From an uncultured Verrucomicrobiae bacterium (lineage in GTDB: Bacteria > Verrucomicrobiota > Verrucomicrobiia > Chthoniobacterales > UBA10450), in assembly GCA_963814965.1 (NCBI GenBank), contig CAWFFA010000021.1, positions 15,793-47,792 of the forward strand: 32,000 nucleotides of DNA, written 5' to 3'. The notes beneath the pieces were generated by a model that was given only the letters and a program-made list of their open reading frames with translations, did no database searches and was not told where the DNA came from. Each line of letters begins with the position of its first letter. Within the stretch, counting starts at the first letter, position 1. Below, piece by piece: positions 6,897 to 26,123 of this stretch. A program made the position numbers and the translations under genes.

Positions 6897-6922
6897 GGTG
6901 TAGCCACGGCGCTGTGCGCCGT
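6897..6922 (+). repeat. REP (type 1), 5' flank of RAYT-1
   Basis: The sequence is GGTGTAGCC + ACGGCGC-tgt-GCGCCGT. Confidence 0.65.
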
Positions 6923-6970
6923 CTGCATTGGGTATTGCGAGTTTCCGAAGTTCCGACTTACCCTGCGCTT

Positions 6971-7447
6971 GTGCCCCCCAAAAAGTTTGGCCGGCGTCCG
7001 CCGCGTCTCGACGAGATCTTTCAACGTTATGATTCGCCGGTTTATTTCGTCACCTTTTGCACGCATCGCCGTAAACCGATTCTTGTCTCAAAGAGAATCC
7101 ATTCTGCCTTCGTTGAGTTTGCCCGCCGCGCAGTCGAATTCAATGTCGCAGTTGGCCGCTATGTCATCATGCCAGATCACGTGCATCTGTTTGTATGTGG
7201 AGATGACGAATTTGTCCTCAGCCGCTGGATTACCGGTCTGAAACAAGCGCTCGCGCGAGCGAACGCTTGGTCGAGGAACAACGGCCAGATCTGGCAGGAA
7301 GGATTCTTCGATCATATTCTGCGTAACGACGAAAGCATGAATCAAAAGTGGGAATACGTTGTTCAGAATCCAGTGCGCGCCGGATTAGTCAAAAACGCTG
7401 AAGATTGGCCTTACCAGGGAGAAGTCGTCATCATTGACCGCGTATGA
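6971..7447 (+). CDS. REP-associated tyrosine transposase (RAYT, IS200/IS605 Y1 HUH family)
   Basis: It has an HUH motif in IMPDHVHLF and the catalytic-Tyr helix KWEYVVQNPVRAGLV. The track start at 6914 is a GTG inside the REP hairpin loop, so I prefer the in-frame GTG at 6971 (VPPKKFGRRPPRLDEIFQ). Confidence 0.85.
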   Translation: MPPKKFGRRPPRLDEIFQRYDSPVYFVTFCTHRRKPILVSKRIHSAFVEFARRAVEFNVAVGRYVIMPDHVHLFVCGDDEFVLSRWITGLKQALARANAWSRNNGQIWQEGFFDHILRNDESMNQKWEYVVQNPVRAGLVKNAEDWPYQGEVVIIDRV

Positions 7448-9560: not shown

Positions 9561-10439
9561 ATGAAAAGGCGGTCGCGACATCACGTTGCCATCCGGTCCG
9601 GCCAGGTCGAGTTCGTGAAGGTCAATACGGACGCCGGGAAATGGCGCGACGTTTATCGTTGGTTGCTCGGCCTGAGCTGGCCGGAGTTCGCCGCTTTCGT
9701 TTCGATTATTTACGTCGCTCTCAATCTGGTTTTTGCGGTTTTCTACAGCCTGGATCGCAACAGCATCGCCGGGACGACGATGTCGGAATGGTTTCTAGAT
9801 TGTTTTTTCTTCAGCGTCCAAACCCTGGCTACGGTGGGTTACGGGCACATCTATCCCCAAAACATTTACGGCCACGTCGTGAGTACCGTCGAAATCATGA
9901 CCGGTGTTTTCCTGCTCGCAGTAATGACCGGCCTCATCTTCGTGCGTTTCTCGCGGCCGGTTGCCCGGGTTGTGTTTAGCCGATCAATCGTGATCGGTCC
10001 CTTGAACGGCAAACCCACGTTAATGGTTCGGGTTGGAAACGAAAACCACCACAGCATGGTCGAAGCAAAGTTTCGGATCATGTACACCCGCGACCAGCAA
10101 CTGGTCGAGGGCGGCGATTTCAGATACTTTCACGATCTCAAACTCCATTTCGCCCAGCTCACCGTCTTTCCCGCCGCGTTAACCCTTCGTCACGAGATCG
10201 ACGAGAACAGTCCGCTTTTCGGCGCGACACCCGAATCGCTCGAGACGGAGCGCGCGCTTTTCTTCGTCTCGGTGGTGGGAATCGATCCGGTGATCGCCGC
10301 CGAAGTGCAAACTCAAAAGGATTACACCTTTCGCGACGTGAAATTCGGCCACCGATTCGTCGAGATTTACACTGCACACGGCGGCGGCAGGCTAACCGTG
10401 GATTACGGTCGCCTGCACGACACTGAGCCGGTCGGGTAG
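9561..10439 (+). CDS. Inward-rectifier-type K+ channel (KirBac family)
   Basis: The selectivity filter is TLATVGYG. The two-TM pore module is followed by a Kir C-terminal beta-rich domain (GKPTLMVRVGN ... FHDLKL), which resembles KirBac1.1 throughout. Confidence 0.9.
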   Translation: MKRRSRHHVAIRSGQVEFVKVNTDAGKWRDVYRWLLGLSWPEFAAFVSIIYVALNLVFAVFYSLDRNSIAGTTMSEWFLDCFFFSVQTLATVGYGHIYPQNIYGHVVSTVEIMTGVFLLAVMTGLIFVRFSRPVARVVFSRSIVIGPLNGKPTLMVRVGNENHHSMVEAKFRIMYTRDQQLVEGGDFRYFHDLKLHFAQLTVFPAALTLRHEIDENSPLFGATPESLETERALFFVSVVGIDPVIAAEVQTQKDYTFRDVKFGHRFVEIYTAHGGGRLTVDYGRLHDTEPVG

Positions 10440-11470: not shown

Positions 11471-12169
11471 ATGAACATCTGGGTTGGCACTTCCGGCTTC
11501 CAATACACCGAATGGAAGGGAAACTTTTATCCGGAGGGTTTGTCGACTGCAAAGATGCTGCCCTATTACGCCGAACGATTTTCGACCACGGAGATCAATT
11601 ACACATTTCACCGGATTCCGGCGCCGAAGACGATCGACAATTGGAAAGCGCAAACGCCGGCAAAATTTCGATTCGCGCTCAAAGCGCCGCAAAAGATCAC
11701 GCACTGGTCGAAGCTGAAAGATTGCGCCGATACGCTGGAATATTTTTGCAAAGTTGTGAGCGGGTTGGGGGACCGATTGGGGCCGGTGCTGTTTCAACTG
11801 CCGCCGACTTTTAAAAAAGACGCCGACGTCCTGAGTTTTTTTCTTCGCGAGTTTCCTGATATGCGGGCAGCGTTCGAGTTTCGACACGACTCCTGGTTCG
11901 ACGACGAAATCTTCGAGCTCCTGAAGTCGCGAAACATTTCTCTGTGCATCGCCGATACCGACGATCTCGCGACGCCGAAGAAACTCACTGCGGACTACGG
12001 TTATCTGCGTTTGCGCCGCGAAGATTATCAGAAAAAGGATGTTGTAAGCTGGTCAAAGTTCGTCACCGAGCAAAAAGCGAATTGGAAAGACGCCTTCGTC
12101 TATTTCAAACACGAAGAAAGCGGCATCGGCCCGAAGCTCGCCAAACAAATGATGGATTTGGTAGCGTAA
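11471..12169 (+). CDS. DUF72 (YecE-like) family protein
   Basis: The N-terminus IWVGTSGFQYTEWKGNFYP ... YYAERFSTTEINYTFH is typical of DUF72. Confidence 0.85.
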   Translation: MNIWVGTSGFQYTEWKGNFYPEGLSTAKMLPYYAERFSTTEINYTFHRIPAPKTIDNWKAQTPAKFRFALKAPQKITHWSKLKDCADTLEYFCKVVSGLGDRLGPVLFQLPPTFKKDADVLSFFLREFPDMRAAFEFRHDSWFDDEIFELLKSRNISLCIADTDDLATPKKLTADYGYLRLRREDYQKKDVVSWSKFVTEQKANWKDAFVYFKHEESGIGPKLAKQMMDLVA

Positions 12170-12186
12170 GCCGAACCGATCAACCC

Positions 12187-12655
12187 ATGCCGCCACGTGC
12201 AAATTTCCTCTGTCGCTTCATCCTCGGACTGAGCGGACTCGTGTTGTTCGTCGGAAACATTTCCGCGCAAAAAGTCGGTGATCCAGTGGGTCACTTGCCC
12301 ATGAAGAAGTATGACGATATGACCGGTGCGTTAGTGACATCCGGAACTATCGTGGCACTCGATCGGCCAGGTTTGCGCTTGTTTATGAAATGTGACAAAC
12401 CATTTTGGGGACCTCTCCGCACCGGAAGCGATTCCGTCTGTACTCTGGCCCACTGTCGTGCAACTTGCAGTTTGGGTGAAAGCAGCCCCGATGACGATGG
12501 ATGGAAAAAAAGCGCATTTTGACGACCTCGCCGTCGGCCAAAGGGTTGGTGTCCAGTATATCATGCACTGGGTCAGTTATGGGTGGGTTGACGGTCTTCA
12601 CTGCTTTGCCCGCCGCGTCGATATCGTTAGTGCCCCAACCAAGATCGGAAAGTAA
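12187..12655 (+). pseudogene. Small exported protein, apparently frameshifted
   Basis: The signal-peptide frame (MPPRANFLCRFILGLSGLVLFVGNISAQK, stop at 12522) overlaps a second frame. That second frame opens at 12392 directly after a TGA and encodes a more protein-like body (VVQLAVWVKAAPMTMDGKKAHFDDLAVGQRVGVQY), ending at 12655. Confidence 0.4.
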
Positions 12656-12716
12656 GGATTCCGGAAATTCGTTCCGATTTTTCCCAAAGCTGGCGAAACA
12701 AATAATAGATTTTATT

Positions 12717-12800
12717 CTGTCATGTTGAGCGAAGCGAAACCTCTCTGATTGTTTCCGAGTCAAAAAGTTCAGAGATTCTTCGCTTCACTCAGAATGACAG
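12717..12800. repeat. Palindromic element: 31-nt inverted arms with a 22-nt spacer
   Basis: The left arm is CTGTCATGTTGAGCGAAGCGAAACCTCTCTG. The reverse complement of the right arm is CTGTCATTCTGAGTGAAGCGAAGAATCTCTG. The two match at 25 of 31 positions. Confidence 0.55.
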
Positions 12801-12838
12801 GACTGACCGATTACGAACCCTCTTCACGCCGGCCGATT

Positions 12839-13444
12839 ATGGGAGTGTTTCGCCAGACGGCAAACGCGGCGACGCGGTTCTGCGTGCGGAATAGAATTGG
12901 TCCGGACACGATTTCATATTCGTCGATTGTCGCGGCGCTGATTGCGGCGGTTTGTTTTTGGAAGTCGGGCGAAACGCGCTGGCTGCTAATTATCGCCCCG
13001 CTGTTGTGCTACTTGCGGCTCTGGTTCAACATGCTTGACGGTATGGTCGCAGTCGCCGCGAACAAGGCGAGCCGGCGTGGCGAAATTTTCAACGACCTGC
13101 CTGACCGCGTTTCCGACATTGTTATTTTCGTCGGGATCGCACACAGCGGCCTAATGAATCTCGTTTTTGGTTATTGGGCGGCGGTTTTATCCATCCTCAC
13201 AGCCTATGTTGGGCTTTTCGGGCAAGCGCTCGGTGTTCAACGCGAGTTTGGCGGAATGATGTCGAAACCGTGGCGTATGGTTGCGCTCGGCATTGGCGCG
13301 TGGCTCACTTATTTTGCCGGCCAGCGATCAATCACGCATTTCACAATCCTGGACTGGACCTGTCTTGTTGTCATCATCGGCTGCGTACAAACAATCGTTG
13401 TGCGCTTGAAACGAATCACTGCTGCGCTGCAAGATAAACGGTGA
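12839..13444 (+). CDS. CDP-alcohol phosphatidyltransferase family protein with a non-canonical signature
   Basis: It is a multi-TM protein containing NMLDGMVAVAANKASRRGEIFNDLPDRVSD, which aligns with D-x2-DG-x2-AR-x8-G-x3-D-x3-D. The track start at 12749 lies inside the palindromic repeat, so I prefer the ATG at 12839 (12794 is also possible). Confidence 0.75.
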   Translation: MGVFRQTANAATRFCVRNRIGPDTISYSSIVAALIAAVCFWKSGETRWLLIIAPLLCYLRLWFNMLDGMVAVAANKASRRGEIFNDLPDRVSDIVIFVGIAHSGLMNLVFGYWAAVLSILTAYVGLFGQALGVQREFGGMMSKPWRMVALGIGAWLTYFAGQRSITHFTILDWTCLVVIIGCVQTIVVRLKRITAALQDKR

Positions 13445-14397
13445 TGTCGCCGCAGAATGCACTGCACGATCCAGTCTTCCGCGCCTATTTCGTAATCGTC
13501 CTTATCTCACTCGTAGCCGGCGGCGGGGTCCTAGCGTTCGTGCGGTTCATTTTGAAACGCGAAACCACGGCGATGTTCAAGACGTATTGGTCCTGGATCC
13601 TCATGGCCGGGATCGGTCTGCTCGTCGTTTTTCTCGGACGCATTCCAACGATCGTTGGCGTCACGTTGCTTGCGATTTTTGCATTCAAGGAATTCGCGCG
13701 CGCGTCGGGTTTGTATCGGGATTGGTGGATGACCGGCGCGGGTTACGCCGGCATTGTCGCGGTTGGAGTTGCCTCCCTGATTTCGCATCCGCGCGGCGAA
13801 GAACCGGGCACCGGATGGTACGGATTGTTTGTCGCGGTGCCCGTATTTGCGATCGCTCTCATCCTGTTAATTCCAATTCTGCGCAATCGGGCCCGCGGAG
13901 AATTGCAACGAATGTCGCTGGCGATTGTCGGATTCATCTACATGGGCTGGATGTTCGGGCACCTAGGGTTTCTGGCGAACGCGCGCAATGCCTACGGCTT
14001 TGTCTGCTTCATCATTTTCGCGACCGGCCTGTGCGACGTTGCGGCCTTCACGTTCGGCAAAATTTTCGGGCGCCATCCATTGCGAAGCGAAATCAGCCCG
14101 AACAAAACCTGGGAAGGTGCAATCGGTGCATTTTGTGTAGCGATGGTTCTCCCATGGTTGCTGCGATTCTCGTTTCCATTCTTCGGCGTGCGCGATCTCA
14201 TCCTTACCGGCTTGATCGTTGGAATCGGCGGACAACTGGGCGATCTTTCCATCAGCGTGATCAAGCGCGACATCGGCACCAAAGACATGGCCGCGACGAT
14301 TCCAGGTCACGGCGGTATTCTCGATCGGATCGACAGTTTGATTTACGCCGCGCCGCTGTTCATGCACATGGCCGGCTATTATCATCCGCTGCGATGA
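13444..14397 (+). CDS. cdsA: Phosphatidate cytidylyltransferase (CDP-diacylglycerol synthase family)
   Basis: It has the C-terminal signature SVIKRDIGTKDMAATIPGHGGILDRIDS and the segment SPNKTWEGAIGA. The ATG overlaps the upstream stop (TGATG). Confidence 0.9.
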   Translation: MSPQNALHDPVFRAYFVIVLISLVAGGGVLAFVRFILKRETTAMFKTYWSWILMAGIGLLVVFLGRIPTIVGVTLLAIFAFKEFARASGLYRDWWMTGAGYAGIVAVGVASLISHPRGEEPGTGWYGLFVAVPVFAIALILLIPILRNRARGELQRMSLAIVGFIYMGWMFGHLGFLANARNAYGFVCFIIFATGLCDVAAFTFGKIFGRHPLRSEISPNKTWEGAIGAFCVAMVLPWLLRFSFPFFGVRDLILTGLIVGIGGQLGDLSISVIKRDIGTKDMAATIPGHGGILDRIDSLIYAAPLFMHMAGYYHPLR

Positions 14398-15188
14398 AAC
14401 GGTGGCGCTACGACTCCGCACGCGACCTGGATCAGGCGCCAATCGATCGGTTGCGGCAGTTTCCGCGCCAACCGGACATGCTCGTTTACGGATTGCGTTC
14501 GATCTGTGCCTTGATCATTCGCGGATTGCTACGCATTTACAATCGTTTCGAAATCATCGGTCACGAAAATCTGCGCACCAATCGTTCGCTTGTTGTGGTG
14601 GCGAATCACTGCAGTCATCTCGACACTCTTTGCCTTTTGGCGGCTCTACCGTTGCGGAAATTGCATCGCGCGTTTCCGGTGGCCGCATCGGACTATTTTT
14701 TTCAACGTGTTCCGCGACTCTGGGCCGCCGCAGTGCTGGTGAATGCGCTACCGTTCGGGCGGCATAGCCGGACTCGAAAGAGTCTGACCATTTGCAGCGA
14801 ACTTCTGGCCAACCCGGGAACGATTCTCATCATTTTTCCCGAAGGAACGCGTTCCACCACCGGCGAGATCAATGAATTCAAATCTGGCATTGGCGCACTC
14901 GTCGCTGGCACGGACGTCGCGGTCGTGCCTTGTTTCATCGACGGTTCGTTTCGAGCCTGGCCGAAAGGCAACCGCCTGCCGCGACCGCGAAAACTTCGAT
15001 TAATCGTGGGCCAGCCACGGAATTATCACTCTCGTAGCACAGACAAAGTGGAACTCACGACGATCGCTAACGAACTGCGCGATGCTGTGATCGCGTTGGG
15101 CGAAGGTGGAACGCGAATCTCCGAGCGCGTTGCTAAAAAGAATGCGGCTGCGCCGCCTGACTTAACATCGTCTTCCGATCCACCATGA
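14394..15188 (+). CDS. Lysophospholipid (1-acyl-glycerol-3-phosphate-type) acyltransferase, PlsC family
   Basis: It has the H-x4-D motif NHCSHLD and the block FPEGTRS. The start forms an ATGA overlap with the cdsA stop. The upstream part of track ORF 13587-15188 is an out-of-frame read through cdsA. Confidence 0.9.
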   Translation: MKRWRYDSARDLDQAPIDRLRQFPRQPDMLVYGLRSICALIIRGLLRIYNRFEIIGHENLRTNRSLVVVANHCSHLDTLCLLAALPLRKLHRAFPVAASDYFFQRVPRLWAAAVLVNALPFGRHSRTRKSLTICSELLANPGTILIIFPEGTRSTTGEINEFKSGIGALVAGTDVAVVPCFIDGSFRAWPKGNRLPRPRKLRLIVGQPRNYHSRSTDKVELTTIANELRDAVIALGEGGTRISERVAKKNAAAPPDLTSSSDPP

Positions 15189-16888
15189 CAGAAAACACTT
15201 TCCGAACTTGGGACGGCGCAGATTTATTTTATCGCGGCTGGATCCCAACCCAGGCGACTAACAAAGCGTTGCTCCTGTTTCATCGCGGCCACGAACACTC
15301 CGGTCGCTGGCATGAGACGGTCGATTCGCTAGGCCTCGATGACGTCGCAATTTTCGCGTGGGATGCGCGCGGTCACGGCCGATCGCCTGGGGAACGCGGC
15401 GCGGCAAACAGTCTCCACGATGTGATCAAAGATCTGGACGCGTTCGTTCGACACATTTCCGAAGCGCACAGGGTTCCGATCGAAAACATGATCGTACTCG
15501 CGCACAGCCTCGCCGCTGTGACGGTGACTGCGTGGGTCCACGATTACGCGCCGCCGATTCGCGCGATGATTCTCGCGACCGCTGCATTTAAGGTGAAGCT
15601 GTACATTCCGTTTGCGATTCGGTTCCTTCGGATTCTTCGGCCGCCGTTTGTGAAGAGTTACGTGAAATCGAAAATGCTCACGCACGATCCCGAGCAGGCC
15701 GAGCGTTACGATTCCGATCCACTCATCTTTCGGCAAATCGCCGTCAATGTGCTCCTGGATCTTCACGACACTGCGAAACGGCTGGTGGCCGACGCCGGTA
15801 CAATCGATGCCCCGACCTTGATGATCGGCGCCGGTAAGGATTGGGTTGTTAGTCTCAAAACGCAGAAAGTGTTTTTCGACCGGCTTTCTTCACCCGAAAA
15901 ACGCTTCAAGATTTTTCCGGACGCCTATCACGCGATTTTTCACGAAACCAATCGTCGCGAAGTTGTCGATCTTGTCCGCGAATACATTTTGGAATGCTTT
16001 GCGAAACCACCAGAGCCCATGTCGCACCTGAACTCCGACAAGACAGGTTACACTGCGGACGAATACGAACGGCTAAAAAGAAATGGCAGCCCGGCGTTCG
16101 CGATTGTGCGCGGAAGTTTGGCGATCGCCGGACGACTGAGTCGCGGCATCGAGATCGGTTCCTATTACGGTTTCGATTCCGGCCTTTCGCTCGATTATGT
16201 TTATGAGAACCAACCCCACGGATCGTTAGGCGTGGGCCGCCTGATCGATCAAGCATATCTTAACAACATCGGCTGGCGCGGGATTCGCCGTCGCAAAGCG
16301 AATCTTGAGAAAAGCCTTCGCGATTTAGTTTTCAAAGTGCACGACGAAGGACGGCCGGTAAGAATTCTTGACGTGGCCGCGGGTGCGGGACGTTATGTCA
16401 TCGAGACGATTCGTGCAGTGACGGAAATTCCGATTGCTGCCTTACTTTGCGATTACAAACAGGAGAACGTCGAAGCCGCGCGTGCTTTGGCCGACCAATT
16501 GAATCTCAACGGCGCCGTTGTCACGCAGCATCGCGATGCGTTCAACCGGAAGTCTCTTGGTGATATTCATCCGCGGGCGACTATCGGAATCGTGTCCGGT
16601 CTTTATGAATTGTTTCCGTCAAACGAAGCGGTGTTGAATTCGTTACGCGGTCTCGTCGACGCGATCGAGCCCGGCGGATATTTGATTTACACCAACCAAC
16701 CGTGGCATCCGCAGTTAAAGTTCATCGCCCACGTGCTGCGCAATCGCGAAGGAGAACGCTGGGTCATGCGACGACGTACAACCGCCGAAATGGATGAGTT
16801 GGTGCGGGTTGCGGGATTCGAAAAACTCGACATGAAGATCGACGAGTGGGGGATGTTTACGGTTTCAATCGCGCGCCGTGGAGATTAA
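15185..16888 (+). CDS. Fusion protein: lysophospholipase/monoacylglycerol-lipase-like alpha/beta hydrolase + class I SAM-dependent methyltransferase
   Basis: The N-terminal half has HRGHEHSGRW, the nucleophile elbow LAHSLAA, and DWVV ... YHAIFHE. The C-terminal half has SAM motif I, VRILDVAAGAGRYVIE. The start forms an ATGA overlap with the upstream stop. Confidence 0.85.
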   Translation: MTENTFRTWDGADLFYRGWIPTQATNKALLLFHRGHEHSGRWHETVDSLGLDDVAIFAWDARGHGRSPGERGAANSLHDVIKDLDAFVRHISEAHRVPIENMIVLAHSLAAVTVTAWVHDYAPPIRAMILATAAFKVKLYIPFAIRFLRILRPPFVKSYVKSKMLTHDPEQAERYDSDPLIFRQIAVNVLLDLHDTAKRLVADAGTIDAPTLMIGAGKDWVVSLKTQKVFFDRLSSPEKRFKIFPDAYHAIFHETNRREVVDLVREYILECFAKPPEPMSHLNSDKTGYTADEYERLKRNGSPAFAIVRGSLAIAGRLSRGIEIGSYYGFDSGLSLDYVYENQPHGSLGVGRLIDQAYLNNIGWRGIRRRKANLEKSLRDLVFKVHDEGRPVRILDVAAGAGRYVIETIRAVTEIPIAALLCDYKQENVEAARALADQLNLNGAVVTQHRDAFNRKSLGDIHPRATIGIVSGLYELFPSNEAVLNSLRGLVDAIEPGGYLIYTNQPWHPQLKFIAHVLRNREGERWVMRRRTTAEMDELVRVAGFEKLDMKIDEWGMFTVSIARRGD

Positions 16889-17522
16889 ACGCAGCAGAGC
16901 GCTCGCAGTCTCAATCGGGCTGTCGATCTTGTTCCTAATCGTTTACGGCGGGTGCAACTGGATCACCGCGCGGCGCGCGAACGTCGGCACGTTCTTCTTT
17001 TGGTGGGAGATCGCGATTCCGTTCGTGCCGTTTTTTATTCTTCCCTACATGTCGATCGATCTGTTCTTTGTTGCCGCGCCGTTTCTCTGCCGAACGGAGC
17101 GCGAGTTGTCGATCTTCACGAAGCGAATTGCGACCGCGATCCTTGTCGCCGGAGTTTGTTTCCTCATTTTTCCGCTACGGTTCGCGTTTCCGCGGCCGCA
17201 CGCGGACGGCTCGCTCGGCGCGATCTTCGATTGGTTTCGCGGAATGGATGCGCCGTTCAACTTGCTCCCGTCACTCCATGCGGCGCTGATGTTGATTCTT
17301 GCCGACCTATACGTTCGGCATACGCGAGGAATGGTCCGGGCTTCGATCATCGTCTGGTTCACTCTGATCGCGCTTTCGCCGGTGCTCACGTACCAACACC
17401 ACCTGGTCGACATCGCCGGCGGATTTGTGCTCGCGGCGTTCTGTTTTTGGATCTTTCGTGACCGCGATTTGTCCTCGCCTCAGTTAAACCGCGTCCCTCA
17501 TAATCCTCAACCGCCCTTATGA
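16878..17522 (+). CDS. PAP2-superfamily integral membrane protein (PAP2_3 / IPC-synthase-like motif pattern)
   Basis: The motifs present are FPRP, PSLHAA and YQHHLVD (C1-, C2- and C3-like). The GTG start overlaps the upstream gene by 11 nt. Confidence 0.6.
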   Translation: MEIKRSRALAVSIGLSILFLIVYGGCNWITARRANVGTFFFWWEIAIPFVPFFILPYMSIDLFFVAAPFLCRTERELSIFTKRIATAILVAGVCFLIFPLRFAFPRPHADGSLGAIFDWFRGMDAPFNLLPSLHAALMLILADLYVRHTRGMVRASIIVWFTLIALSPVLTYQHHLVDIAGGFVLAAFCFWIFRDRDLSSPQLNRVPHNPQPPL

Positions 17523-17944
17523 ACTACAACGAACTGATTCAACTTTATTTCGAGCGCTCGAACGCGTTGCAAGGATATTGGAACCTTTATGTCGTGGTCG
17601 TTGGCGGACTCCTAGCGTTTTCATCTCTTCGCAAACAGCCCGCCGTAATCACGACCCTGATCGTGTCTCTGCTTTTCGGCTTGTTTGCTTATGAGAATCA
17701 CGACGCGATCCAGGTTGCGACAGCTCAACGCCTGGCAACGCATGAGGCTATTACGAAATTCGACGCTGGGGCCGCCGAGCCAACTGCGAAGCAAGTGCGC
17801 GATGTCTTGGAACCTACGTTAACGCCGGCCAGTCACGGGAGTGTGCGAATGACTCATGTTACCAGTGACATCCTTGTCCTTGCCGGGCTCTGGGCGATGG
17901 AATTGCGGCGAAGGAAATTGAAAGAAGGAATCGCCAAGCCGTAA
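17519..17944 (+). CDS. Hypothetical 3-TM membrane protein, last gene of the coupled lipid cluster
   Basis: The 141-aa ORF starts with an ATGA overlap on the PAP2 gene stop. I recognise no family. Confidence 0.55.
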   Translation: MNYNELIQLYFERSNALQGYWNLYVVVVGGLLAFSSLRKQPAVITTLIVSLLFGLFAYENHDAIQVATAQRLATHEAITKFDAGAAEPTAKQVRDVLEPTLTPASHGSVRMTHVTSDILVLAGLWAMELRRRKLKEGIAKP

Positions 17945-17968
17945 GGACGCGATTCAGGGGACAAAAAG

Positions 17969-18775
17969 ATGAACCGCACTCACATCAAGTGGCTTCCGAT
18001 TCTCGCCGCGCTTGGGTTTATCGCCTATCAATATCTTACCTCGGAAAAATTTGTGAATCCGGAGACAGGGCGTGCGAGCCACGTCGGCCTGTCGACCCAG
18101 CAGGAAGCAGCGCTCGGTTTGCAAACCTACCAGCAAGTCCTGTCGCAATCACAAACAATTAAATCGGGGCCGGAGTTAGACATGGTCCAACGGGTTGTCC
18201 GGCGGCTGGCCGCGGCGACCGGTGATGATGGGAAAGACTTTACCTGGAACGTATCGTTGGTTCAAAGCGACCAGGTGAACGCGTTCTGTCTGCCCGGCGG
18301 AAAAATTGTCGTTTACACGGGGATTCTTCCGGTCGCGAATAGCGAAGCTGCGCTGGCCACCGTCCTTGGCCATGAAATGGCGCATGCCACGTCCCGCCAC
18401 GGCGCACAACGTGTCTTCGAGCAGAACCTCACCCAGACCGCGATGATCGGCATCGCCGGCTCACTTTCGGATATGGATTACGAGAAACAACGAAGCGTAA
18501 TGGCTGCGCTGGGCGCCGGCGCGCAGTATGGCGTGTTGATGCCGTTCAGCCGCAAGCACGAATCCGAGGCGGACCATATCGGCCTGCTTTACATGGCGCG
18601 CGCCGGTTACGATCCGCGCGAAAGTATTGCGTTCTGGCAGCGAATGGAAAAAATGTCGAGCGCGCAACCGCCACAATTCCTTTCAGACCATCCCTCGCAC
18701 GGAACGCGTATCCAACAACTGGAAGGCTGGATGGCGCAAGCGACGGCGGAATACAACAAATCCCAGTCGCATTGA
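17969..18775 (+). CDS. M48 family zinc metalloprotease
   Basis: It has the HExxH motif in LGHEMAHATSRH and a downstream ESEAD segment. It also has an N-terminal membrane anchor. Confidence 0.9.
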   Translation: MNRTHIKWLPILAALGFIAYQYLTSEKFVNPETGRASHVGLSTQQEAALGLQTYQQVLSQSQTIKSGPELDMVQRVVRRLAAATGDDGKDFTWNVSLVQSDQVNAFCLPGGKIVVYTGILPVANSEAALATVLGHEMAHATSRHGAQRVFEQNLTQTAMIGIAGSLSDMDYEKQRSVMAALGAGAQYGVLMPFSRKHESEADHIGLLYMARAGYDPRESIAFWQRMEKMSSAQPPQFLSDHPSHGTRIQQLEGWMAQATAEYNKSQSH

Positions 18776-18794
18776 ATCGATTGGCGGAATACGA

Positions 18795-18931
18795 ATAGCC
18801 CAGCGTTTCAACGGTGGGTCACTAAAGCATTCAATAGCCAAGTCCGGTAGGACGACAGAAGAATTTCTTTCGTCCTCTTGGGACTTAGTTTGCTAGGAAA
18901 CAATTTTCCCAGGCTTAAAAGCCTGGGCTAT
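18795..18931. repeat. 137-bp REPIN-like doublet, copy B
   Basis: The termini are ATAGCCCAGCG-tttcaa-CGGTGGG and, on the reverse complement, ATAGCCCAGGCT-ttta-AGCCTGGG. The central hairpin is AGGACG...CGTCCT. It is exactly the same length as copy A. Confidence 0.65.
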
Positions 18932-20575: not shown

Positions 20576-21040
20576 ATGATCAAAAATCGTCCGCCCCGAC
20601 TCGACGCGATCTTTCAGAGCTACGATAGGCCTTTATTTTTCGTAACGATCTGCACAATTCATCGCCGAAAAATTGGCGATCTGGACGCCGCACACCATGC
20701 GTTTCAAAAATATATTGCCCTTGGAATGCATGAGTTCGGCGTCGCTGTCGGGCGATACGTGATCATGCCAGACCACATGCATCTTTTTGTCTGTGGTGGA
20801 GATGATTTTAGGCTCGAGCAATGGGTCAGCGGGCTGAAACGATGTATTTCCGTCAGGCTTGGAGCAACAAAGAACCGCCCGCTTTGGCAACCCGGATTTT
20901 TTGATCATCTTTTGCGAAACAACGAATCGTAGGATCAAAAATGGGAGTACGTACGCCAAAATCCGGTTCGAGCACGACTTGTCAACCGGGCAGAGGAATG
21001 GCCCCACCAGGGTGAACATGTCTTGATTGATCGGGTTTGA
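20576..21040 (+). pseudogene. RAYT paralog interrupted by an in-frame TAG
   Basis: The HUH motif IMPDHMHLF is intact. There is a TAG at 20930-20932, and the same frame then continues as DQKWEYVRQNPVRARLV...LIDRV to the TGA at 21038-21040. The stop therefore precedes the catalytic Tyr. Confidence 0.75.
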
Positions 21041-23478: not shown

Positions 23479-23552
23479 TGGGCCTGACTGGGCTCGAACC
23501 AGTGACCCTGCGCTTATCAAGCGCATGCTCTAACCAACTGAGCTACAGGCCC
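23479..23552 (-). tRNA. tRNA-Ile (anticodon GAU)
   Basis: The reverse complement is GGGCCTGTAGCTCAGTTGGTTAGAGCATGCGCTTGATAAGCGCAGGGTCACTGGTTCGAGCCCAGTCAGGCCCA. It folds into a full cloverleaf, and CCA is not encoded. Confidence 0.95.
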
Positions 23553-23645: not shown

Positions 23646-23718
23646 TGGAGGCAAGGGGATTCGAACCCCTGACTTCCAGCTTGCAAAGCTGGCGCTCTAC
23701 CAACTGAGCTATGCCCCC
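23646..23718 (-). tRNA. tRNA-Ala (anticodon UGC)
   Basis: The reverse complement is GGGGGCATAGCTCAGTTGGTAGAGCGCCAGCTTTGCAAGCTGGAAGTCAGGGGTTCGAATCCCCTTGCCTCCA. The G3:U70 identity pair is present, and CCA is not encoded. Confidence 0.95.
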
Positions 23719-24414: not shown

Positions 24415-25974
<1,560 letters not shown>

Positions 25975-26123
25975 AAAAACGGTGAGACTCTTTCAAGCCT
26001 CAAAGTTTGCGTCGAACCCCGCTACGGGGCCGACAAAATCTGACCATTCGATAATCTGTTTCCCGCCGTAGCGGGCCACAGGTTCGTCCGATCTGTAATC
26101 TTTTTTTCCAAAGAAAATCAACA

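Follow-up and report, generated by a model that had tools for sequence, protein, structure and literature searches.

In a 32,000-nucleotide (nt) stretch of DNA from an uncultured Verrucomicrobiae bacterium (GenBank assembly GCA_963814965.1, contig CAWFFA010000021.1, positions 15,793 to 47,792 of the forward strand; hereafter, the window), we identified six lipid-related and membrane protein genes, g1 to g6 (Table 1), which probably constitute a ynbABCD-type operon, that is, an accessory lipid branch dependent on cytidine diphosphate-diacylglycerol (CDP-DAG), in a Chthoniobacterales/Udaeobacter-like verrucomicrobium. This assignment is based on the matches of g1, g2, g4 and g5 to YnbA, YnbB, YnbC and the PAP2 half of YnbD of Escherichia coli, respectively. 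An earlier note, made from the sequence of the window, had stated that no characterised pathway with this gene set was known to its author. The set is in fact known as the ynbABCD family (b1408-b1411 in E. coli K-12) and is routinely named by PGAP, and one of its members, YnbB, has been studied experimentally. The operon family is biochemically orphan, and what the window adds to it is a form with a PAP2-only YnbD.

The product of g4 is a single polypeptide with Pfam matches to Hydrolase_4 (7e-60) and Methyltransf_20 (6.5e-114), and it aligns with E. coli YnbC over the full length (581 columns) at 46% identity (E 4e-179). Its homologues number in the thousands, the nearest ones (80-88% identical) originating from metagenome-assembled genomes (MAGs) of Chthoniobacterales/Candidatus Udaeobacter, which points to a soil verrucomicrobium as the source of the window, and the genes matched by g4 in a tblastn search of plasmid records are annotated ynbC in E. 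coli. The g1 product is 29% identical to E. coli YnbA (BLASTP, E 4e-13), to which the hidden Markov model (HMM) of the g1 family assigns 105 bits, and the g5 product is 32% identical to the N-terminal, PAP2 half of E. coli YnbD (E 8e-31), which scores 330 bits with the HMM of the g5 family. The g2 protein belongs to Pfam CTP_transf_1 (4e-51) and contains an intact PROSITE-type CdsA signature, SVIKRDIGTKDMAATIPGHGGILDRID. YnbB of E. coli is a paralogue of CdsA; the two are homologous in the catalytic C-terminal half and differ in the N-terminal half, and because plain BLASTP with g2 could not tell the two apart (94 versus 96 bits), a family profile was needed for the classification. The g2-family HMM aligned with YnbB end to end (202 bits), compared with 128 bits for CdsA, whereas the NCBIfam CdsA equivalog PRK11624 matched the C-terminal half of g2 only, with 95 bits against a cut-off of 385. 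The genomic context of g2 also differs from the uppS-cdsA-rseP type of the housekeeping cdsA.

The gene order g1-g2-g3-g4-g5, often with g6, was found in about 50 loci of Verrucomicrobiota and Planctomycetota (Phycisphaerae, Pirellulales and Gemmataceae), and the same five families cluster in these two phyla and in Alpha-, Beta- and Gammaproteobacteria, where the copies reside on plasmids or chromids. Conservation of the order across phyla, a check set beforehand, was thus confirmed for Verrucomicrobiota and Planctomycetota, with the genes being rearranged in Burkholderia and Shinella. Four independent, distant YnbA-type genes (28-35% identity), selected from the results of an exhaustive search, all have a CTP_transf_1 gene directly downstream, and three of them have a PF01553 acyltransferase gene nearby; A-B(-PlsC) is therefore the most tightly linked module. 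As for YnbC, it is almost invariably encoded beside the PAP2 half, the dual-specificity phosphatase (DSP) half, or both halves of YnbD.

Five successive start/stop overlaps (in order from g1 to g6, TGATG with 1 nt shared, ATGA, ATGA, an 11-nt overlap and ATGA), together with a gene order that recurs in dozens of relatives, indicate that the six genes form an operon. The ORFs (open reading frames) of the window bear out the description in the earlier note of six consecutive genes on one strand, with exactly these junctions, and Pfam searches and hydrophobic segments agree with the family calls made there for g1 to g5 and for g6 as a protein with about three transmembrane (TM) segments. The coordinates given at the time also stand for all genes except g1. 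The motif SRRPI, which is conserved in the N-termini of g1 homologues about 10 residues after their start, falls upstream of position 12839 in the window, and the start of g1 is therefore probably the ATG at 12794. The further claim that the overlaps imply stoichiometric co-expression was not upheld: overlaps alone indicate an operon and do not by themselves show stoichiometry.

Table 1. Features of the ynb-like operon and of the element directly preceding it (positions in the window; aa, amino acids).
Feature	Coordinates	Strand	Description
REP-like element	12718..12799	.	Imperfect palindromic element directly 5' of g1; right arm holds the probable start ATG 12794
g1	12794..13444 (216 aa from ATG 12794; 201 aa from ATG 12839)	+	YnbA-like membrane protein with CDP-alcohol phosphatidyltransferase fold
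g2	13444-14397	+	YnbB-like CDP-diacylglycerol synthase paralogue, 317 aa
g3	14394-15188	+	PlsC-like lysophospholipid acyltransferase, 264 aa
g4	15185-16888	+	YnbC-like hydrolase/methyltransferase fusion, 567 aa
g5	16878-17522, GTG start	+	PAP2 half of YnbD, 214 aa
g6	17519-17944	+	Small membrane protein, 141 aa, ~3 hydrophobic segments, no family

The g1 protein barely passes the threshold of Pfam CDP-OH_P_transf (22.5 bits, cut-off 22), and its earlier designation as a CDP-alcohol transferase holds for the family and not for the canonical enzyme, the catalytic motif being degenerate. The signature shared by PgsA, PssA and phosphatidylinositol-phosphate synthase (PIPS), D1-x2-D2-G-x2-A-R-x8-G-x3-D3-x3-D4, is absent from g1, which reads N-x2-D-G-x2-A-V-x8-G-x3-N-x3-D; in an alignment with Mycobacterium kansasii PIPS, D1 and D3 are replaced by Asn and the Arg by Val, with D2 and D4 kept. 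The same N...N motif is present in E. coli YnbA. Of the top 150 representatives of the YnbA family, 105 span this region, and about 100 of these have the motif. The motif of the family, which comprises 865 representatives (50% clustering, E<1e-10), can be written as N-x2-D-G-x2-A-[VIL]-x8-G-x3-N-x3-D. In the structures of M. tuberculosis PgsA1, Mg-1 is held by D1, D2 and D3, the last of which also bridges to Mg-2, and D4 acts as the catalytic base. The YnbA family thus retains D2 and the catalytic base, with a changed di-metal site, and its members are not to be assumed to be ordinary phosphatidyltransferases.

The g3 product belongs to the Pfam Acyltransferase family PF01553 (1e-21) and contains the HX4D motif (NHCSHLD) and FPEGTRS; it scores 50 bits with TIGR00530 (AGP_acyltrn), against a cut-off of 103, and its best match is the acyltransferase domain of Aas-type lysophospholipid acyltransferases. 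Such a PlsC-like gene is lacking from the operon of E. coli but occurs in the clusters of Proteobacteria, planctomycetes and Verrucomicrobia. A metagenomic protein of 843 aa (P0105) combines PF01553, Hydrolase_4 and Methyltransf_20 in one ORF, which corresponds to a g3-g4 fusion; this may be a true fusion, which would support functional coupling, or may result from a 1-nt indel at the ATGA overlap.

The N-terminal part of g4 (residues ~1-262) is a serine hydrolase resembling monoacylglycerol lipases, which it matches in the PDB at 1e-21. In an alignment of the family, residues S107 and D219 do not vary; H249, for which E. coli YnbC has a matching His, is likely to be the third residue of the catalytic triad. 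The C-terminal part (residues ~264-567) is a class I S-adenosylmethionine-dependent methyltransferase of the Methyltransf_20 family, with the motif ILDVAAGAGRY. A sequence profile search of this domain against the PDB returned only generic class I methyltransferases, at E >= 9e-4. Its AlphaFold model (predicted local distance difference test score, pLDDT, 93) was nearest in a fold search to the uncharacterised Bordetella entry 3ocj and to small-molecule and natural-product O-, N- and C-methyltransferases, and because these are the nearest folds, no substrate can be called for the methyltransferase. YnbC itself is still described in the literature as a putative hydrolase/methyltransferase of unknown function. 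On plasmid pNP7-2 of Moraxella osloensis (locus L086, 6001-13119), a YnbC homologue annotated as a methyltransferase only is linked to genes for a patatin-like phospholipase, an SDR protein, a CdsA-like protein and a PAP2 protein; the upstream hydrolase part of this homologue may be a pseudogene.

The g5 protein scores just over the Pfam cut-offs for PAP2 (29.7 bits) and PAP2_3 (29.5 bits), and a sequence search of the PDB with g5 gave no match. Compared with the motifs of PgpB-type PAP2 proteins (C1 Kx6RP, C2 PSGH, C3 SRx5Hx3D), those of g5 are [R/K]x4RP, PSLH and SPx5Hx3D, so that the H-H-D residues are kept (PSLH ... QHHLVD) and the Arg of C3 and the canonical Lys of C1 are gone. Of the three parts of YnbD, namely PAP2, TM-linker and DSP, only the PAP2 half is retained: g5 is a shortened version of a protein with two domains and, relative to a related locus (L002), lacks a segment of ~810 bp encoding the TM-linker and a DSP with the motif HCKIGYSRS. 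Both parts are present in E. coli YnbD and in close relatives, and no DSP domain was found anywhere in the window. The DSP half is also deleted in about 14 related loci, and 38 of 59 homologous ORFs contain HCxxGxxR[ST]. The closest PDB matches of the DSP domain of the family include PTPMT1, the mitochondrial phosphatidylglycerophosphate (PGP) phosphatase (E 1.4e-9). Depending on the lineage, YnbD occurs as PAP2 only, DSP only, or both, a pattern that fits a shared dephosphorylation step.

Clusters of the DSP-less type are found in a conserved Kir-mem218-DUF72-[cluster]-YggS context (flanks of loci L001, L005, L012, L014, L019, L044 and L059), which those of the DSP type lack. One MAG, SMAG_U9518, carries both types, L017 with and L059 without the DSP, which suggests that each genome has a pair of paralogous ynb-like clusters, unless the bin is mixed. 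In MAGs of Puniceicoccaceae and several others (L074, 7983-11514, and L075, L077, L079, L070, L072 and L076), YnbC is followed by a stand-alone protein consisting of the TM-linker and the DSP, and in L074 the next gene encodes a sulfotransferase. There is no YnbA, YnbB, PlsC or PAP2 gene within 8 kb in L074, L075, L077 and L079; L076 has YnbA, YnbB and PlsC upstream.

The last gene, g6, is start/stop-coupled to g5 and adjoins the cluster in 33 loci, including one in a Phycisphaerales MAG. Its product matched no Pfam or NCBIfam family, showed no similarity to YnbD, including the linker, and has no detectable homology to the small protein that occupies the corresponding position in Burkholderia and Shinella (hhalign probability 0.4%).

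The earlier note had proposed a separate, self-contained lipid pathway, and the separateness is supported in that the module is conserved, g1, g2 and g3 score below the NCBIfam equivalog cut-offs for PgsA/PssA/PIPS, CdsA and PlsC, respectively, g2 is YnbB-like, the E. coli operon is additional to the essential cdsA and the proteobacterial copies are located on plasmids or chromids; the gene set is, as stated above, not a novel one. The reaction order suggested at the same time, acylation, CDP-activation, head-group transfer, dephosphorylation and modification, is still the most economical reading. Accordingly ordered, g3 would acylate a lyso-lipid, yielding a dedicated phosphatidate pool, and g2, with its intact signature, would convert phosphatidate to CDP-DAG, an activity shown for E. 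coli YnbB. The g1 protein, with its PIP synthase-like fold and altered two-metal site, could then pass the phosphatidyl group to an acceptor that is probably phosphorylated or anionic; the characterised proteins nearest to g1 use such an acceptor, inositol-1-phosphate. The extra phosphate would be removed by g5, with the fused PTPMT1-like DSP acting together with PAP2 or in its place in most relatives. Finally, the soluble g4 protein is predicted to deacylate the lipid or a by-product and/or to methylate it, and g6 might be an accessory membrane subunit. Experimental backing exists for the CDP-DAG synthase step, in E. coli, and the other steps are suggested by homology and gene linkage.

This backing comes from studies of YnbB, the sole operon member studied in E. 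coli, in the context of the glycolipid MPIase. YnbB forms CDP-DAG in vitro, its overproduction raises MPIase, the proposed first intermediate of which is N-acetylglucosamine-pyrophosphate-diacylglycerol (GlcNAc-PP-DAG), and it does not complement a cdsA knockout, that is, it does not sustain bulk phospholipid synthesis. YnbB is cold-induced, and the ynbA promoter is activated by BglJ-RcsB.

Several observations weigh against an accessory CDP-DAG-dependent branch. Two of the three Asp ligands of Mg-1, including the bridging one, are Asn in YnbA-type proteins, and, judging from this motif, classical phosphatidyl transfer by these proteins may not occur. The PAP2 motifs of g5 are as similar to those of phosphotransferase-type PAP2_3 proteins as to those of phosphatases. 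In some lineages, YnbC is accompanied by a DSP protein only, without A, B or PlsC nearby, and the hydrolase/methyltransferase may therefore act on a general lipid. A ynbB knockout of E. coli has no lipid or MPIase phenotype. In the literature on YnbA, YnbC, YnbD and Methyltransf_20 (PF12147), we found no demonstrated activity and no functional study beyond YnbB.

A further-reaching reading, which we put forward tentatively and consider rather doubtful as a whole, is that the YnbA family represents a distinct class of phosphatidyltransferases, in which the Asn-containing site couples the CDP-DAG made by a private YnbB to an acceptor that canonical enzymes cannot use. The ynb operon would then produce an undescribed membrane lipid, such as a pyrophosphate-linked DAG anchor or a methylated phospholipid, common to E. 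coli, plant-associated Proteobacteria, Planctomycetota and Udaeobacter-like soil Verrucomicrobiota.

It is unlikely, although consistent with the sole experimental link of any family member, that of YnbB to MPIase and GlcNAc-PP-DAG, that the operon builds a pyrophosphate-linked DAG glycolipid anchor (sugar-PP-DAG, similar to MPIase 'compound I'). YnbB would make CDP-DAG, the N/N-type YnbA would transfer the phosphatidyl group to a sugar-1-phosphate or to phosphate, and PAP2 would recycle DAG-pyrophosphate. The loss of two acidic metal ligands in YnbA could suit an anionic phosphate acceptor, and PAP2 enzymes commonly hydrolyse lipid pyrophosphates (PgpB, Dpp1). However, no glycosyltransferase, sugar-nucleotide or flippase genes were present in or beside the cluster at any locus examined, and our literature search found no paper that ties YnbA to MPIase. 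Furthermore, MPIase has been described in E. coli only, where the ynbB knockout does not lower its level and CdsA alone is sufficient.

Alternatively, YnbC and a lipid phosphatase could form the conserved core of the system and serve to turn over or remodel lipids, for example, by freeing and methyl-esterifying an acyl chain or head group of ordinary phospholipids, with A, B and PlsC feeding or repairing the substrate pool. In line with such a role, Puniceicoccaceae, Woeseiaceae-like and other MAGs encode YnbC together with a stand-alone DSP, with A, B and PlsC missing from the surrounding 8 kb, and on the Moraxella plasmid the methyltransferase-only homologue is linked to PAP2, a CdsA-like gene and the gene of a patatin-like phospholipase. 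The similarity of the g4 hydrolase to monoacylglycerol lipases and the small-molecule methyltransferase-like fold of its second domain are also compatible with it. Nevertheless, the A-B(-PlsC) module is also found without YnbC, so that the two halves are separable and not hierarchical, and in most lineages the genes are tightly joined in one operon with those of biosynthetic enzymes, which speaks for a biosynthetic role; we regard this alternative as quite improbable.

Still less favoured is an inositol-lipid pathway, in which g1 would be a PIP or archaetidylinositol-phosphate (AIP) synthase, g5 (with the DSP in relatives) a PIP phosphatase or a transferase similar to inositol phosphorylceramide synthase, and g4 would methylate or deacylate the product. 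The best NCBIfam matches of g1 are indeed AIP synthase (76 bits, cut-off 180), PIP synthase (52, cut-off 170) and Bacteroides BT_1523 (47), its best PDB matches are mycobacterial PIPS, and the only NCBIfam match of g5 is a phosphoinositol-dihydroceramide synthase of the BT_1522 type. Yet none of these scores comes near the equivalog cut-offs of 170-480 bits, the catalytic D1 and D3 are replaced in g1, and no inositol-1-phosphate synthase gene was detected among the scanned larger ORFs of the window or in the inspected Burkholderia and Shinella clusters. E. coli has ynbABCD and is not known for inositol lipids, which also argues against this very unlikely option.

Finally, a plain gathering of housekeeping cdsA, pgsA, plsC and pgpB in one operon, formally sufficient for the route from lysophosphatidate through phosphatidate, CDP-DAG and PGP to phosphatidylglycerol, is hardly credible, as the equivalog cut-offs are widely missed (including that of pssA, for which g1 scores 20 bits against a cut-off of 107), the g1 motif is non-canonical, g2 is nearer to YnbB, which cannot replace CdsA, the cluster is a dispensable extra in E. 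coli and on the plasmids of Proteobacteria, and the fused hydrolase/methyltransferase has no housekeeping counterpart.

The neighbours of the operon (a Kir-like channel, DUF72, M48 peptidase, YggS and others) are not lipid-related. The KirBac-like inward-rectifier potassium channel gene (IRK_C + Ion_trans_2) lies upstream at 9561-10439 (+) and is syntenic in close relatives. Recent horizontal transfer was considered as an origin of the operon and is ruled out by the GC content, which is uniform throughout the region, and by the flanking synteny kept in close relatives. A promoter and terminator scan of positions 12100-18900 gave background-level signals only, and Rfam searches detected no riboswitch or other Rfam element near the operon. 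The repetitive extragenic palindrome (REP)-like element preceding g1 contains a 21-mer in two inverted copies, with none expected by chance, and would, if translated, read as a FASLRMT peptide; two genes for IS200-like Y1 transposases of the RAYT type are encoded elsewhere in the window (6914-7447 and 20576-20932, both +). The window also contains a complete 16S rRNA gene (24424-25976, -) followed by two tRNA genes (23646-23718 and 23479-23552, both -), and Rfam detected no 23S rRNA gene within its 32 kb; the rRNA genes appear to be unlinked or split.

To conclude, few lipid gene sets of E. coli K-12 that encode several enzymes are without an assigned product, and the ynb operon is among them; a fuller version of it, with its own acyltransferase, is kept in at least three phyla, including the Udaeobacter-like soil Verrucomicrobiota, which are known almost wholly from MAGs. 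The details that are new here are the conserved, non-canonical active site of the YnbA family and the loss of the PTPMT1-like DSP domain from the YnbD of the window. For experiments, the YnbA-YnbB pair as an invariant core and the systematically altered catalytic motif of YnbA provide handles. For the window, this amounts mainly to the correct annotation of an accessory lipid operon, which is neither a housekeeping set nor a new kind of system.

Among the known systems, E. coli K-12 ynbABCD has the same A-B-C-D order, a YnbA-type transferase of ~201 aa with the N...N motif and an A-B gene pair with the same 1-nt overlap as the window. The window differs by a PlsC-like gene that separates B from C and by a gene for a small membrane protein that follows D, and its YnbD is devoid of the TM-linker and the dual-specificity phosphatase half carried by the E. 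coli protein. In Burkholderia ambifaria, on Shinella/Rhizobium replicons and in Pseudomonas protegens PBL3 (cluster 25), there are clusters of six genes that contain the same five families, including the PlsC-like one, with a small membrane protein of ~150 aa after YnbD, but have the order A-C-D-small-PlsC-B, or a divergent PlsC-B, and a full-length YnbD. None of them has been characterised; a 2026 paper lists the P. protegens cluster as an accessory 'membrane phospholipid remodelling/biogenesis module'. In B. ambifaria, the ynb-like cluster (locus L084, 10495-13740) is located beside the cellulose synthesis genes bcsB and bcsZ and a diguanylate cyclase fragment, on a 19-kb record labelled as a plasmid that may instead be a chromosomal fragment.

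The pathways of PIP synthase and phosphatase (Mycobacterium PgsA1, Bacteroides BT_1522-BT_1526 and archaeal AIP synthase) include the nearest characterised relatives of g1 and a weak match of g5, and follow the same two-step logic of transfer to a phosphorylated alcohol and subsequent dephosphorylation. By comparison, the window proteins score far under the family cut-offs, the D1 and D3 ligands have become Asn, no inositol-phosphate synthase was found in the searches described above, and the window has an extra CdsA paralogue, an acyltransferase and a hydrolase/methyltransferase. The mitochondrial phosphatidylglycerol branch (CDP-DAG synthase, Pgs1 and PTPMT1) resembles the family in that the DSP of YnbD is PTPMT1-like and would follow a CDP-DAG synthase and a phosphatidyltransferase; this likeness is one of sequence alone, the window copy has no DSP, and its transferase belongs to another subfamily. 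The housekeeping CdsA-PgsA-PgpB/PlsC enzymes share Pfam superfamilies and formal reaction types with the window genes, which are set apart from them by the missed equivalog thresholds, the YnbB-like N-terminal half of g2, the non-canonical transferase motif and a context other than that of housekeeping cdsA.

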